Source: an uncultured delta proteobacterium (GTDB taxonomy: Bacteria; Myxococcota_A; Polyangia; Polyangiales; Polyangiaceae). From it: a stretch of 64,000 nt of DNA. Numbering within the stretch: the stretch's first letter is position 1; every line of letters starts with the position of its first letter. Shown here one piece after another: positions 27,135-32,397 of this stretch. The stretch covers positions 1,440,001 through 1,504,000 of the forward strand of contig CAWJCS010000006.1 in the NCBI GenBank assembly GCA_963841435.1, given 5' to 3'. Under the pieces are notes generated by a model, which ran no database searches, was not told the origin of the DNA, and saw only the letters and a program-made list of their open reading frames with translations. The position numbers were made by a program, and so were the translations under genes.

Positions 27135-29108
27135 ATGGACGACTTCGAAAAGGCGGTGCACACGATTCAATTTCTGTCGGCGGACGCCGTCGAGAAGGCG
27201 GGCGCGGGGCACCCCGGGACGCCGATGGCGCTCGCGGGCATCACCGTCAACATTTTCACGCGGTACCTCCGCTACGACCCGACCACGCCCGATTGGCCCA
27301 ACCGTGATCGTTTCGTGCTCTCCTGCGGGCACGCGTCGATGCTGCTCTACTCGGTGTTGCATCTCGCCGGGTACGACCTCCCACTCTCCGAGCTGCAGGC
27401 CTTCCGGCAATGGGGCTCGAAGACGCCGGGACACCCCGAGCACGGCCTAACGCCCGGCGTCGAAACCACGACGGGCCCGCTCGGACAGGGCGTCGGCAAC
27501 GCCGTCGGGTTCGCGCTCGCCAGCAAGCTGGCCGGCGCCAGGCTGAACCAGCCCGGTTCCGAGGTCTTCGACTATCGCGTGTTCGCTCTGGCTTCGGACG
27601 GCGACCTCATGGAGGGCGTTTCGGGCGAGGCCTCGAGCATCGCGGGCCACCTCGGGGTCAACAATCTCGTCGTCGTCTACGACGACAACAAGATCACGAT
27701 CGACGGCAGCACGGACCTCTCCTTCAGCGAGGACGTCGCGAAGCGTTACGAGGCCTACGGCTGGTCCGTCCAGCGCGTCGACGGACATGCGCCCGACCAG
27801 GTTAGAAAGGCCCTCGATGCGGCCGTCGCGCACCGCGGCTCGCCGTCGCTGATCCTCGCGCGCACGATCATCGGCATCGGAGCGCCCACGAAGGCCGGCA
27901 CGAGCAAGGCGCACGGTGCTCCGCTCGGCCGCGAGGAGATCGACGGCGCCAAGCGCGCTTGCGGCTGGCCGCTCGAGCAATTCTTCGTCGCACCGGAAGC
28001 TCGTGCGCTCTTCGCGAAGCGCGCCGCCGAAAATCGTCCGCTCCGCGAGGCGTGGGAGAAGCTCGCGCGTGGGCTCACGGGTGAGCGCGCCGCCCTGTAC
28101 CAGAAGCTCACGACGCGCGCGGTGCCCGACAACCTGTATGCGGAGCTGCTCGCGGTCGCCCGGACACTCAAGCCCGACGCCACGCGCAGCTCCGGCGCCG
28201 CCGTCGAGCAGAAGGCCGCGGCGCTCGTGCCCGCCCTCGTCGGCGGGGCCGCCGACCTCGCGGAGTCCACCAAAACGACCATCAAGGGCTCCCCCGACAT
28301 CAAGCGCGGCGAGTTCGCCGGCCGAAATTTCAATTTCGGCATCCGGGAGCACGGCATGGCAGCCATCCTGAATGGCCTCGCGCTCTCGGGCCTGTTCGTC
28401 CCGTTCGGCTCGAGCTTCCTCATCTTCACCGACTACTGCCGCCCGTCGATCCGCCTGTCCGCGCTGATGGAGCAGCAGGTCATTTACGTCTTCACGCACG
28501 ACTCCGTGTTCCTCGGCGAGGACGGCCCCACTCATCAGCCCGTCGAGCAGCTCGCCTCGCTACGGCTGATCCCGAACCTCGACGTGGTCCGCCCAGCGGA
28601 CGCGCTCGAGTGTGCCGCCGCGTGGACGTACGCACTCACGCGCCGGCACGGCCCCACGCTCATCGCGCTGAGCCGCCACAAGTTGCCCGCGCTCGAGCGC
28701 CCCGACGGCTTCGACACGGCGCGCATGCTCGACGGGGCGTACGTCCTTTCGGACGCCGACAAACCCGAGGTCGTCATGATCGCGACGGGGAGCGAGGTAT
28801 CGGCTGCCGTCGCCGCGAAGAAGCTGCTCGAAGAAAAGGGGCGGCGTGTGCGGATCGTGAGCGCGCCCTGCGTTCAGGCGTTCGAGCGCATGCCGCCCGA
28901 AAAGCGCGCGGCGATGCTGCCGTCGGGGCCACTGCTCGTTTCGGTGGAAGCCGGGCGAACCATGGGGTTTGCGGCGCTGACGGGGCCCTCGGGTCTGAAC
29001 ATCGGTGTCGATCGCTTTGGCGCTTCCGCCCCCTGGGAACGTCTGGCCGTCGAGTTCGGGCTCACGGGCGAAGCCATCGCGGCGCGCGTCCTGGAGCGTC
29101 TCACGTGA
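27135..29108 (+). CDS. tkt: Transketolase
   Basis: GHPGTPM, RDRFVLSCGH, TTGPLGQG, SDGDLMEG, FGIREH and THDSVFLGEDGPTHQP motifs. Confidence 0.97.
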   Translation: MDDFEKAVHTIQFLSADAVEKAGAGHPGTPMALAGITVNIFTRYLRYDPTTPDWPNRDRFVLSCGHASMLLYSVLHLAGYDLPLSELQAFRQWGSKTPGHPEHGLTPGVETTTGPLGQGVGNAVGFALASKLAGARLNQPGSEVFDYRVFALASDGDLMEGVSGEASSIAGHLGVNNLVVVYDDNKITIDGSTDLSFSEDVAKRYEAYGWSVQRVDGHAPDQVRKALDAAVAHRGSPSLILARTIIGIGAPTKAGTSKAHGAPLGREEIDGAKRACGWPLEQFFVAPEARALFAKRAAENRPLREAWEKLARGLTGERAALYQKLTTRAVPDNLYAELLAVARTLKPDATRSSGAAVEQKAAALVPALVGGAADLAESTKTTIKGSPDIKRGEFAGRNFNFGIREHGMAAILNGLALSGLFVPFGSSFLIFTDYCRPSIRLSALMEQQVIYVFTHDSVFLGEDGPTHQPVEQLASLRLIPNLDVVRPADALECAAAWTYALTRRHGPTLIALSRHKLPALERPDGFDTARMLDGAYVLSDADKPEVVMIATGSEVSAAVAAKKLLEEKGRRVRIVSAPCVQAFERMPPEKRAAMLPSGPLLVSVEAGRTMGFAALTGPSGLNIGVDRFGASAPWERLAVEFGLTGEAIAARVLERLT

Positions 29109-29464
29109 CACTGCCCGTCGTGCTCGTTCCTCACCCGCACGTGCGGGTCGAGCAGAGCGTGCTCGGCGGCAGCCCCTACGTCGTCGGCTCGCGCGTCCCC
29201 GTGCGCCGCCTGTTCAGCTTCTTCGAAAGTGGTGCCAGCGTGGAGCGCATTCTCAAGCGCTACCCGCAGCTCGGTGCAGCCAAGGTGCTCGACGCGCTCG
29301 CCTTTGCGCTCGACAATCCCGAGGTGATCGAGGCGGACGCGCGACGCGAGCACGAAATCCTCGCGCGTGCGGGTCACAAGCCCAAAAAGCAGGGCGACGG
29401 TTCTGCGCAGATCGAGCTGCCGTTCGCGTCACCCTCGCGCACGGGCCCGGCGAGCCGAGGCTGA
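29105..29464 (+). CDS. DUF433-domain protein
   Basis: LGGSPYVVGSRVPV...ILKRYPQL...VLDALAFA. The GTG overlaps the tkt stop. Confidence 0.82.
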   Translation: MTLPVVLVPHPHVRVEQSVLGGSPYVVGSRVPVRRLFSFFESGASVERILKRYPQLGAAKVLDALAFALDNPEVIEADARREHEILARAGHKPKKQGDGSAQIELPFASPSRTGPASRG

Positions 29465-29552
29465 TTTCGGCTGCCCGGCACCCGAAAAACCGGGCTCAAA
29501 GCGAGACGCCGGCTTTCAACTACTGGATTTAACTGACTTTTCATCGCTTCGA

Positions 29553-29581
29553 TTCACAAGTGCCGCTCTGCCGAGTAGGTT
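29553..29581 (+). promoter_or_regulatory. Putative sigma70 promoter of the Cys-rich lipoprotein gene
   Basis: TTCACA-N17-TAGGTT, preceded by an AT-rich tract (29515-29545). GGAGGA RBS at ~29622-29630. Confidence 0.5.
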
Positions 29582-29636
29582 GCCCCCTCAACCGAGCTGC
29601 CTAACCCAATTGGGGCGGCACGGAGGAGGATTCAAC

Positions 29637-30944
29637 ATGCGTCCCAATCGTGGTCAGAGAGTTGGTGGAGCCGTCATTGCAGCGATGCTTCTCGCGTCGC
29701 CGTTGTTGATGGACTGCGGCAAGAAAGGCGCCGGGGGAGGTCCCGCCATTCCGGGTGCCGACAACCTTCCGGGTGGCGGTGCGCTGCCAGGAGGTTGCCC
29801 CGCCAACATCGCTGACGCCGAGGCCGTTATGTCGGCAAACTTCGGCCTAGAAGGTGAGCTCGAAGGCAAGGTCAAGGCTGCGCTCTCGGCAGGCGCCACG
29901 CTGCAGGGCATCGCCGCGGATCTCGAGGCCGAGGTCGCGATGGCGTGCGGCAACCTGGCAAAGGATCTCGGCGCCACCGACGCCGACCTCGCTCCGAAGG
30001 AAGACGGCCCGGGCAAGAAGGCGGAAGCCGCTTGCATGGCTGCCTCGAAGTTCGTCGGCGATCTCAAGGCGAAGGCCAAGGGCAGCCTCAAGGTCGAGAT
30101 CAAGCCGCCGCGCTGTTCGGCATCCATGAACGCCATGGCCGAATGCGCTGGAAAGTGCGACGCAACCGTGAAACCCGGCTCCGCGAAGGTGGAGTGCGAG
30201 GGTGGCAAGATCAGCGGCGAGTGCTCCGGCAAGTGCGAGGGCGAGTGTGCCGTTCAGGCCGGCGCCAAGTGCGAGGGAAGCTGCAGCGGCAGCTGCACCG
30301 GTGAGTGCTCCGGTGACATCTCCGGCAAGTGTGACGGCACCTGCGAAGGCAAGTGCGACGGCAAGGACACCAAGGGCAAGTGCGCCGGCACCTGCGACGG
30401 TAAGTGCAAGGGCAAGGCCACCGCGAGCTGCAGCGGTACCTGCAAGGGCACCTGCAGTGCCAGCTGCACGGTCCAGGCCAAGGGCGAGTGCAAGGGCGAG
30501 TGCTCCGGCAAGTGCAACGTCGAGATGAAGGCGCCGAAGTGCAGCGGCGAGGTCAAGCCGCCGGAGATGAGCGCCGAGTGCAAGGCGAACTGCAACGCCG
30601 AGGTGAACGCGAAGCTCGAGTGCACCCCGGCTTCGGTCATGGCCAAGGTCGAAGGTTCGGCGGACGCTCAGGCGGCTGCCAAGCTCAAGGCCGCACTCAC
30701 CAAGGACCTGCCCGCCATCCTCAAGGTCTCGATGGGCATGAAGGGCAAGCTCGAGGGCGTGGTCGGCAGCGTGAAGGCCGGCCTCGAGGGCGGCAAAGCA
30801 GCGATCACCTCGGGTGGTGACGCGGCGCTCAAGGTCGGCGCCTGCTTCGCCGCGTCGATTGACGCCCAGGCGAAGGCGGCGGTTTCGATCGACGTGTCGG
30901 TGAAGGCGAGCGCTTCGGCGAGCGCCTCCGCCAGCGCCGGCTGA
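29637..30944 (+). CDS. Cysteine-rich lipoprotein with (CxGx)n core flanked by Ala/Lys-rich helical regions
   Basis: Strong RBS, signal peptide ending LLMD-C, 28 Cys in the core at 30114-30623, and its own terminator. Confidence 0.88.
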   Translation: MRPNRGQRVGGAVIAAMLLASPLLMDCGKKGAGGGPAIPGADNLPGGGALPGGCPANIADAEAVMSANFGLEGELEGKVKAALSAGATLQGIAADLEAEVAMACGNLAKDLGATDADLAPKEDGPGKKAEAACMAASKFVGDLKAKAKGSLKVEIKPPRCSASMNAMAECAGKCDATVKPGSAKVECEGGKISGECSGKCEGECAVQAGAKCEGSCSGSCTGECSGDISGKCDGTCEGKCDGKDTKGKCAGTCDGKCKGKATASCSGTCKGTCSASCTVQAKGECKGECSGKCNVEMKAPKCSGEVKPPEMSAECKANCNAEVNAKLECTPASVMAKVEGSADAQAAAKLKAALTKDLPAILKVSMGMKGKLEGVVGSVKAGLEGGKAAITSGGDAALKVGACFAASIDAQAKAAVSIDVSVKASASASASASAG

Positions 30945-30960
30945 GCCCCACAGCGGTCGT

Positions 30961-31006
30961 ACGGCCCGTTTCGGCGCTCGGCGCCGGAGCGGGCCGTCGG
31001 CTTTTT
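30961..31006 (+). terminator. Rho-independent terminator
   Basis: 17-bp stem (with G-U pairs) acggcccgtttcggcgc-tcg-gcgccggagcgggccgt followed by cggcttttt, between convergent genes. Confidence 0.75.
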
Positions 31007-31026
31007 GTGCTCCCCGGGCGGAGGCT

Positions 31027-32397
31027 TCAGCCCGCCACGGAAGCCACGTCGCGGCGGGCGGCCTCGGCCATTTCCTCGACCATCGCTTTGAGCACATCGG
31101 GGTCGGGGCCTTCGAGCATCAGGCGGAGCTTGGGCTCCGTGCCGCTCCAGCGCACGAGCACGCGTCCACCGTCGCCGAGCTTGGCCTCGGCGTCGGCGAT
31201 GCGACGCGTGAGCTCCGCCATCTCCGCGAGGGGGCGGCGCGCCGCGAGCTTCACGCTCTCGAGCACCTGCGGCACGCGCTCCATCGAGCGCGCGAGCTCG
31301 CTGAGCGGGCGCGCCTCACGAAGCATGATGGCGAGCACCTGCAGCGCCGCGACGATGCCGTCGCCCGTGGTGGCGTGCTCGGCGAACACCAGATGCCCCG
31401 ACTGTTCGCCGCCGAACGTGAGGCCGTCACGGCGCATTTCTTCGACGACGTAGCGATCCCCGACGGCCGTCCGCCGTAGCTTCGCTCCCGCCGCTGCGAG
31501 CGCCCGCTCGAGCCCCATGTTGCTCATTACGGTTGCGACGACGACGCCCTTCGCGAGTCGCCCGGCGCGCTGCATGCGCGTGCCGCAGAGCGCCATGACG
31601 GCATCTCCGTCGACGATTTCGCCCCGCTCGTCCACGAAGATCACGCGGTCGGCGTCGCCGTCGAGAGCCACGCCGAGGTGGGCTTTGCGCTTCTTCACTT
31701 CGCCTGCCACGTGCGCCGGATGGAGCGCGCCGCACGCGCGATTGATGTTGAGCCCGTTCGGCCGGCAGCCGATCGCCGTGACCTCCGCACCGAGCTCGGC
31801 GAGCACGGCAGGCGCGACACGGTAGGCGGCGCCGTGCGCCGCATCCACGACGATGTTGAGGCCGTGCAGCGTGAGCTCGCGCGGGAAGGTGCCCTTGGCG
31901 TAAACGACATAGCGCCCGAAGGCGTCGTCGAGCCGCTCGGCGCGTCCGACGCCGCTGCCGCTCGAGCCGAGCCCCACGAGCTTGGGATCGGACATCAACG
32001 CTTCGATGGCGGCTTCCTCCTCGTCGGGGAGCTTGAAGCCGTCCGGTCCGAACAGCTTGATGCCGTTGTCGGCGAAGGGGTTGTGGCTCGCGCTGATGAC
32101 GACGCCGGCGTCGGCACGCATGCTCTGGGTGAGGTGGGCCACGGCGGGCGTCGGGATCGGGCCCGTGAGCATGACGCGGCCGCCCATGGCGCAGATGCCA
32201 GCTGCGATCGCCGTCTCGAGCATGTAGCCGCTGAGGCGCGTGTCCTTGCCGATGACGATGCGTGGAATGTGCGAGCGCCCGCGCCGGGCCACGTACCCGA
32301 TGGCTCGGCCGAGCCTGAGCGCCAGCTCCGGGGTCATCGGCTCCGCGCCCGCCCGACCCCGGATGCCGTCCGTCCCGAAAAGCTGCCGTTCGGCCAT
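31027..32397 (-). CDS. glmM: Phosphoglucosamine mutase
   Basis: FGTDGIRG, GKDTRLSGYM, SASHNP, DGDADR, VGDRYV and GGEQSGH motifs. Confidence 0.96.
   Translation of the reverse strand: MAERQLFGTDGIRGRAGAEPMTPELALRLGRAIGYVARRGRSHIPRIVIGKDTRLSGYMLETAIAAGICAMGGRVMLTGPIPTPAVAHLTQSMRADAGVVISASHNPFADNGIKLFGPDGFKLPDEEEAAIEALMSDPKLVGLGSSGSGVGRAERLDDAFGRYVVYAKGTFPRELTLHGLNIVVDAAHGAAYRVAPAVLAELGAEVTAIGCRPNGLNINRACGALHPAHVAGEVKKRKAHLGVALDGDADRVIFVDERGEIVDGDAVMALCGTRMQRAGRLAKGVVVATVMSNMGLERALAAAGAKLRRTAVGDRYVVEEMRRDGLTFGGEQSGHLVFAEHATTGDGIVAALQVLAIMLREARPLSELARSMERVPQVLESVKLAARRPLAEMAELTRRIADAEAKLGDGGRVLVRWSGTEPKLRLMLEGPDPDVLKAMVEEMAEAARRDVASVAG

Follow-up and report, generated by a model that had tools for sequence, protein, structure and literature searches.

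The window analysed here is a stretch of 64,000 nucleotides from an uncultured delta proteobacterium of the family Polyangiaceae (assembly GCA_963841435.1, contig CAWJCS010000006.1, positions 1,440,001 to 1,504,000 of the forward strand); all coordinates below are those of the window unless another contig is named. On its plus strand lies a gene for a cysteine-rich protein of 435 amino acids, P0001, whose 28 core cysteines are placed as an exact palindrome along the chain. The likely start is the ATG at 29637, inside an open frame at 29367-30944 (+). A second open frame of 416 amino acids runs antisense over the gene (29847-31097, minus strand) and is of the shadow type common in DNA of 69% G+C; we prefer the plus-strand frame because homologs support it. 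The initial annotation had predicted both a promoter and a terminator for the gene. The terminator was recovered: a stem of 17 bp (30961-30997) with a run of T after it; the promoter was not, as a simple scan of 29100-31200 returned no sigma-70-like site. The gene and the regions of its product are the following:

29622..29629, plus strand: Shine-Dalgarno-like GGAGGAGG, read from the sequence, with a 7-nt spacer before the ATG.
29637..30944, plus strand: coding sequence of P0001, 435 amino acids and stop, a translated frame supported by 1895 database relatives.
29637..29717, plus strand: N-terminus resembling a signal peptide, with LLMDC27 at its end, where Asp at -1 makes the lipobox non-canonical; C27 is kept in at least 90% of 132 aligned members.
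29718..29795, plus strand: Gly/Pro-rich linker, residues 28-53, predicted to be disordered (predicted local distance difference test score, pLDDT, below 50).
29796..30077, plus strand: N-terminal helical flank, residues 54-147, with conserved C54, C104 and C133 and predicted helices at 74-110 and 127-147; the helical-bundle matches described below cover residues 57-435.
30078..30221, plus strand: N-side cap or base, residues 148-195, with C160, C170, C174 and C187; AlphaFold2 predicts two strands, a helix at 164-174 carrying C170-x3-C174, and two further strands.
30222..30356, plus strand: first half of the ladder, residues 196-240, cysteine blocks 3-4-3 on a 4-residue lattice, with vacancies at A208 and I228.
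30357..30380, plus strand: central polar turn DGKDTKGK, residues 241-248, the centre of symmetry.
30381..30515, plus strand: second half of the ladder, residues 249-293, cysteine blocks 3-4-3, with vacancies at A261 and A281.
30516..30662, plus strand: C-side cap or base, residues 294-342, with C302, C315, C319 and C329; AlphaFold2 predicts strands, a helix at 313-325 carrying C315-x3-C319, and a strand.
30663..30941, plus strand: C-terminal helical flank, residues 343-435, with C403, predicted helices at 344-392 and 396-433, and the Ser/Ala tail SASASASASAG, kept across members as an S/A-rich end.
30961..31007, plus strand: intrinsic terminator, downstream of the stop codon.

P0001 contains 33 cysteines in all, 28 of which make up the core between C160 (codon at 30114) and C329 (codon 30621-30623). 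The 27 spacings between them read 10 4 13 9 4 4 8 4 4 4 8 4 4 [9] 4 4 8 4 4 4 8 4 4 9 13 4 10, with the central one in brackets. This is an exact palindrome in which each cysteine i is mirrored at 489-i, all pair sums being 489; the chance that a shuffled order of the same 27 spacings is palindromic is 8.5e-8. The initial annotation had placed the core at 30114..30623, grouped it as 1-2-1-3-4-3 / 3-4-3-1-2-1 around DGKDTKGK (30357-30380), set it between two Ala/Lys-rich helical regions and noted the SASASASASAG end. The codons, the spacing count and the tail agree with this description, and helices are indeed predicted on both flanks, at 74-147 and 344-433.

Is the core a mirror or a tandem repeat? 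Within P0001, the inner 3-4-3/3-4-3 is at once a mirror, a tandem repeat and a pair of self-symmetric units, and only the outer caps (10 4 13 9 versus 9 13 4 10) are strictly mirrored. Since P0001 alone leaves the two possibilities ambiguous for the inner ladder, family patterns were needed to decide between them. The relatives (E 0.001 or better, from 8000 candidates scored) fall into 821 representative clusters at 50% identity. In a close set of 121 proteins (62-100% identity, P0001 included), the 27-spacing palindrome is kept in 102 and a shorter 3-4-3-4-3 palindrome occurs in one; the other 18 are not palindromic, 17 of them through one extra residue in one loop. A distant set comprised 151 sequences, P0001 and 150 representatives at 30-56% identity, from which we left out 19 that lack both caps (mostly fragments) and the two-domain protein P0133. 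The core cysteine count is even in 128 of the remaining 131, and these 128 single-domain representatives are diverse, with 77 distinct first halves, 42 block patterns and from 6 to 38 core cysteines. Exact palindromes were found in 78 of the 128 and a mirrored block pattern in 120. When the first half of one protein was combined with the reversed second half of another, exact matches fell to 364 of 16256 combinations (2.2%) and block-pattern matches to 1204 of 16256 (7.4%). Thus the palindrome persists while length and block pattern vary, as the initial annotation had proposed in suggesting that blocks are gained and lost symmetrically; one member has no ladder at all. The asymmetric homolog patterns that it had named as the contrary outcome did not occur.

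The same 128 representatives separate mirror from repeat when the ladder is considered without its caps: 54 are mirrored only (for example 3-7/7-3, 3-4/4-3 and 4-7/7-4), in 32 mirror and direct repeat coincide, P0001 among them, and a single one is a direct repeat only. Two are too short to class, and 39 belong to neither class, mostly because one or two loops are off by 1-2 residues. Each half holds an odd number of cysteines in 62 of the 128 (summed from the cysteine-count table). Thus, pairing confined to one half cannot use all the cysteines. Internal gene duplication was rejected as the source of the symmetry, as the order of secondary structures is mirrored, not repeated, and direct-only ladders number one in 128. 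The ladder pattern is maintained by paired, mirror-image evolution across the family.

The palindrome also recurs in family members of different organisation. A paralog in the same genome (locus L002:1396-2592, at ~666.3-667.5 kb of contig C6) encodes 399 amino acids with 36% identity to P0001 and carries 30 core cysteines in the exact palindrome 10 4 6 9 9 4 6 10 4x6 [9] 4x6 10 6 4 9 9 6 4 10. Tandem two-domain members are P0133, P0272, P0273 and P0274 (789-832 amino acids). In P0133 and P0273, each domain has its own palindrome and the pattern differs between the domains; in P0272 and P0274 the first domain is palindromic and the second was not parsed by the cap rule. A search for longer forms, which did not extend to the shorter length class, returned only three proteins, all of them tandem two-domain and none fused to a domain that hints at function. 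At the other extreme, P0131 (300 amino acids) has the helical flanks and 6-cysteine caps (10 4 15 4 10) and no ladder, and some more distant genomes, in class-level matches, match the N- and C-terminal flanks only. Thus, the ladder behaves like an insert that an older scaffold may or may not carry.

What kind of structure does the ladder form? We counted residues on the 4-residue lattice in 94 gap-free cores that share the P0001 pattern. Phase 0 is Cys in 83% of cases and otherwise Ala, Ile or Phe; phase 2 is Gly in 68-73% and otherwise Ala or Val; phases 1 and 3 are polar or charged. Such preferences are those of a beta strand whose residues point in and out by turns, with a single, small face buried. 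Vacancies in the lattice come as mirrored, hydrophobic pairs (A208/A281 and I228/A261). Residues 228 and 263, the most strongly co-varying pair of columns, co-vary by size in the 94 cores: Ile goes with Ala in 70, Phe with Gly in 22, and Leu or Met with Ala in 2. Of the top 80 co-varying pairs, 8 lie within 2 residues of i+j=489 (2.2 expected) and 17 within 6 residues (5.4 expected); pairs at i to i+8, 16, 17, 18 or 36 are not in excess. The mirrored pairing for which the initial annotation had suggested a coevolution check is thus favoured by an excess near i+j=489 that, with only ~32 effective sequences, is supporting but not decisive.

AlphaFold2, run with a 132-sequence alignment, modelled the whole protein with a pLDDT of 88 and a predicted template modelling score of 0.82, and the core alone (residues 148-342) with a pLDDT of 94.3. 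In these models residues 1-48 (signal and Gly/Pro linker) are disordered; the helices of the caps lie amid short strands (164-174) or are followed by a strand (313-325), and the ladder is drawn as about twelve 6-residue strands, one per 8 residues, through 199-302. With VIA-align, the whole model matched helical bundles only, with aligned ranges that span residues 57-435. The best of these was domain 1 of the S-layer protein SbsC (Z 8.3, root-mean-square deviation 2.7 A over 88 residues), a level common for bundles. The core model matched small alpha/beta domains only; these correspond to the base, span core residues 12-184 and draw on both ends of the core, that is, on the N-side and C-side caps (best Z 4.9). 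Because the bundle matches span 57-435 and the alpha/beta matches span core residues 12-184, both chain ends meet in the model. Thus, the predicted protein would be a hairpin of three tiers: bundle, base and ladder.

The structure library of 48,161 representative chains contained no match to the ladder, and no chain in it scored as high as Z 5 with the core model. Foldseek searches of the PDB with the whole and core models gave no match at E 0.001, and at the sequence level neither P0001 nor the family profile found anything there below E 0.001, the best profile match being at E 0.35. An Atlas search restricted to named clusters yielded no usable match. As modelled, the ladder fold has no counterpart among the solved chains searched and is probably new.

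How does the protein reach its place? The N-terminus of P0001 is of the Sec type and lacks a twin arginine. A canonical lipobox is a signal peptide ending in [LVI][ASTVI][GAS]C. An early cysteine is present in 222 of 251 members, where the commonest boxes are LMDC, LNNC and IVDC, and canonical boxes (LAGC, LFVGC) occur in some distant members and, as LFVGC, in the same-genome paralog. The signal-like N-terminus and the widely kept C27 bear out the lipoprotein assignment of the initial annotation only in part, the box of P0001 being LMDC; P0001 is probably lipid-anchored at C27. The genome of origin contains 18 matches to the DsbA family. Since export would take the protein to an oxidising compartment, disulfides are the likelier state of its cysteines.

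Taken together, these results lead us to favour, with reasonable but by no means full confidence, an exported and probably lipid-anchored hairpin protein with a beta projection that is stapled by disulfides and variable in length. A single bundle would be formed by the N-terminal (74-147) and C-terminal (344-433) helices. On it would sit a small alpha/beta base built from both sides, each contributing a Cx3C helix (C170/C174 and C315/C319). From this base, a Cys/Gly-lined beta structure would run out along residues 196-240, turn at DGKDTKGK and return along 249-293, such that cysteine i of the outgoing half touches cysteine 489-i of the returning half. Oxidation in the envelope would then join the mirrored cysteines in up to 14 disulfides, to which C54, C104, C133 and C403 might add two more. 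Along each strand, cysteine would occupy every fourth residue, with Gly or Ala two residues further on the same face and polar residues on the other face.

The centre of the palindrome suits such a hairpin. In beta hairpins, cross-strand disulfides are favoured at non-hydrogen-bonded sites, and a central spacing of 9 puts the innermost cysteine pair on such a site of a two-residue hairpin. If the turn is the two residues D244-T245, residues 243 and 246 would form the hydrogen-bonded closing pair, and all Cys and Gly pairs of the lattice would come to lie at non-hydrogen-bonded sites: G242/G247, C240/C249, G238/G251, C236/C253 and onward. A central spacing of 9 is found in 83 of the 128 representatives. 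Rungs would be gained or lost only as mirror pairs, and a lost disulfide would be replaced by a small hydrophobic pair. The function is taken to be structural: the protein may serve as a stiff, protease-resistant projection or as a spacer of set length in the envelope.

The two cap helices are also alike when read in the same direction, AECAGKCDATV (residues 168-178, window 30146-30179) and AECKANCNAEV (residues 313-323, window 30581-30614). This likeness, in spite of the mirrored cysteines, is consistent with two Cx3C helices related by a local two-fold.

Several observations weigh against the stapled hairpin or against parts of it: (i) in both AlphaFold2 models, the strands of the second half (253-258, 261-265, 269-273, 277-284, 288-293) lie 4 residues away from the mirror image of those in the first half, and residues 243-248, the proposed turn, are drawn as a strand. 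As modelled, the ladder is not a plain two-stranded ribbon in register i+j=489. Of the antiparallel hairpin inferred in the initial annotation, the model bears out the closure of the chain, with its N- and C-terminal helices in a shared bundle, but it draws short, shifted strands in place of a single long ribbon or pair of helices; (ii) the alignment behind the co-variation is shallow, the change from I/A to F/G may have happened once and been passed down within one clade, and mirrored co-variation would arise equally if paired cysteines shared metal ions; (iii) the residue at -1 of the lipobox (window 29709-29717) is Asp or Asn in most of the clade (LMDC, LNNC, IVDC, LVDC), which departs from the canonical lipobox, so that either signal peptidase II accepts Asp or Asn here or processing differs; (iv) the tip consists of an 8-residue polar turn only, whereas on a stalk, as proposed in the initial annotation, one would expect a head; and (v) the gene neighbourhood (transketolase, DUF433, GlmM) gives no pointer to function.

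The main rival to the stapled hairpin is a metal-thiolate ladder, in which a row of metal (Cu(I), Zn, Cd or Fe-S) lies between the mirrored cysteines and the protein acts as a metal store or sponge of the envelope. Shared metal sites would explain the loss of mirrored cysteine pairs no less well than disulfides do. The composition of the ladder is also suggestive: it is made of Cys, Gly, Lys, Ser, Thr, Glu, Asp and Ala, with no His, Trp or Tyr, and such cysteine-rich compositions resemble metallothioneins; CxxxC motifs also line copper storage proteins. We nevertheless consider a metal ladder unlikely. A Sec-type N-terminus with no twin arginine implies export of the unfolded chain into an oxidising compartment, in a genome with its many DsbA-family matches. 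Folds that depend on metal differ from what is seen here, a strict alternation of inward and outward beta residues and a confident AlphaFold2 model that contains no metal, and the vacancies are filled by hydrophobic pairs that compensate each other in size, as expected of side chains in direct contact. Finally, neither P0001 nor 50 relatives matched the metallothionein or copper-storage families of Pfam and NCBIfam.

Alternatively, the core could be a beta-solenoid or a stack of short strands, with disulfides that are local or run across the coil and with a palindrome that reflects only symmetric units and caps. Several points count against this possibility: the 54 mirror-only patterns, such as 3-7/7-3 and 3-4/4-3, are neither tandem nor self-symmetric, against one direct-only pattern, and the odd cysteine count per half in 62 of 128 is hard to reconcile with it. 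A single-start solenoid could not bring the two ends of the core together as the models do, and co-variation shows no excess at i to i+8, 16 or 18. Among the library structures, no solenoid scored Z 5 or more with the core, an absence that is weak evidence. What a solenoid would explain is the AlphaFold2 ladder, with its 6-residue strands every 8 residues and a second half that is not the mirror of the first, and the pattern of P0001 itself, in which 3-4-3/3-4-3 is also a tandem repeat with each half self-palindromic. Matches to the bactofilin beta-helix profile (PF04519) point the same way, all below threshold: P0001 scores 25.6 bits at residues 244-323 and falls short of the gathering threshold of 27.9, none of 50 relatives pass, 2 of the 50 are sub-threshold, and the paralog scores 19 bits. 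We regard a solenoid as improbable, slightly more so than a metal ladder.

That P0001 is a Cxxx-repeat substrate of a radical SAM maturase, its cysteines turned into thioethers or other cross-links, is very improbable: the precomputed label PF27846.1 is attached to 120 of 120 homologs among the matches listed (Atlas name tSAM_targ_Cxxx_rpt, from which name only we infer the meaning of the tSAM_targ_Cxxx family), but the NCBIfam model TIGR04114, an 18-position repeat model, gives 11.1 bits (E 0.47, cut-off 20) and has no match at E 0.001 in the genome of P0001 or, likewise, in control genomes, no radical SAM enzyme occurs among the 15 open reading frames scanned at 20773-44100, and an export signal with a large confident fold is unlike a peptide precursor.

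To what known proteins can the favoured disulfide-stapled hairpin be compared? Scans of P0001 against Pfam and NCBIfam returned only the sub-threshold bactofilin and the sub-threshold Cxxx-repeat matches, respectively. Theta-defensins, protegrins and tachyplesins are cystine-ladder hairpins of 16-18 residues, with 2-3 rungs every 2 residues. The geometry proposed for P0001 would share with them the antiparallel strands, the parallel disulfides at non-hydrogen-bonded sites and the cysteines mirrored about a tight turn. It would differ in having up to 14 rungs (19 in relatives), placed every 4 residues with Gly between, and its ladder is contained within a 435-residue protein; no homology is implied. 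Twin Cx3C/Cx9C proteins (small Tims, CHCH proteins) consist of two antiparallel CxxxC helices stapled by two disulfides, and the predicted helices 164-174 (C170, C174) and 313-325 (C315, C319) of P0001 each carry a CxxxC motif at mirrored positions. Here, however, the helices are ~140 residues apart with the ladder between them, in an exported bacterial protein, and P0001 has no Pfam match to twin Cx3C/CHCH proteins and no sequence relationship with them.

The Tenebrio antifreeze protein, a beta-helix braced by disulfides, and the bactofilins (PF04519) would resemble the modelled ladder in their short repeated strands with small residues and Cys/Gly facing inward; the cysteine-ladder family differs from them in being exported and in that both ends of its core meet, unlike those of a single-start solenoid. 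PF27846/TIGR04114 has in common with P0001 the repeated Cxxx motif, but is an 18-position repeat model and not a whole protein. The weak top structure matches (FlgL, flagellins, SbsC domain 1, plakin spectrin repeats) recall hairpin scaffolds of the flagellin and spectrin kind, in which N- and C-terminal helices pack and the middle domain projects; the level of these matches is that of any helical bundle, and they speak neither for kinship nor for a common function. By analogy, the design is probably akin to known disulfide-stapled hairpins (cystine ladder and twin Cx3C), in a new family with what is probably a new fold.

How widespread is the family? Of 41 genomes sampled from the order, the own genome among them, 38 gave matches; these cover 15 of 17 genera, and a genome usually has 2-6 matching places. 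An even sample of the phylum gave matches at E 1e-10 in 24 of 201 genomes, concentrated in the family of the source organism (12 of 15 genomes besides its own) and in neighbouring families of the order. All 50 of 50 loci from the species collection belong to metagenome-assembled Polyangiaceae, Polyangiales, Polyangia, Myxococcales, Myxococcota or, more broadly, delta-proteobacteria or "Proteobacteria". The homologs that carry a name from their source are all called "hypothetical protein", and we found no paper on the family in the literature, judged from titles and the openings of abstracts. In four soil metatranscriptome runs, many short contigs were 85-99% alike to the gene body (29604-30955) and almost none to its flanks. 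These matches are contigs in RNA libraries, mostly from relatives, with run shares of at most 0.09, and are no more than a hint that relatives of the gene are transcribed.

Upstream of the gene lie genes for YceG and transketolase and a small DUF433 gene (PF04255, E 7.8e-14; 29159-29461, plus strand), the last between transketolase and the cysteine-ladder gene; downstream lies a convergent GlmM gene. GlmM and transketolase adjoin some orthologs in the genus and not others. We rejected these neighbours as operon partners, as they are housekeeping genes and differ between relatives. Elsewhere in the genome, locus L003 (~768 kb of contig C3) encodes, on the minus strand of the locus, a different cysteine-repeat protein with 37 cysteines in a 400-residue open frame. 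This protein carries a signal peptide and numerous CxxxC motifs at intervals of 8-9 residues, and its cysteine pattern is not palindromic. After its C-terminal cysteine come a hydrophobic stretch and RRRR, resembling a MYXO-CTERM sorting tail.

What do these results mean for the family? They offer a rare kind of structural evidence, as tertiary contacts can be read from sequence through insertions, deletions and cysteine losses that are mirror-matched across 42 block patterns, and they do so for a large uncharacterised family whose core has no solved fold. More tentatively, and with clear reservations, we suggest a new architecture, a tunable cystine-ladder beta module of 0 to ~19 mirror pairs carried on a helical-bundle lipoprotein, which might act as a ruler or spacer of the envelope. 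If true, it would provide a natural, evolvable series of rigid rods in a fold that has no solved counterpart. A genuine disulfide ladder of this kind would, to our knowledge, be by far the longest natural cystine ladder, and its graded rod lengths would lend themselves to the study of oxidative folding with many equivalent cysteines and to use as a protein-engineering scaffold. If the cysteines hold metals instead, the family would be a metal store of a new class in the envelope of soil myxobacteria.

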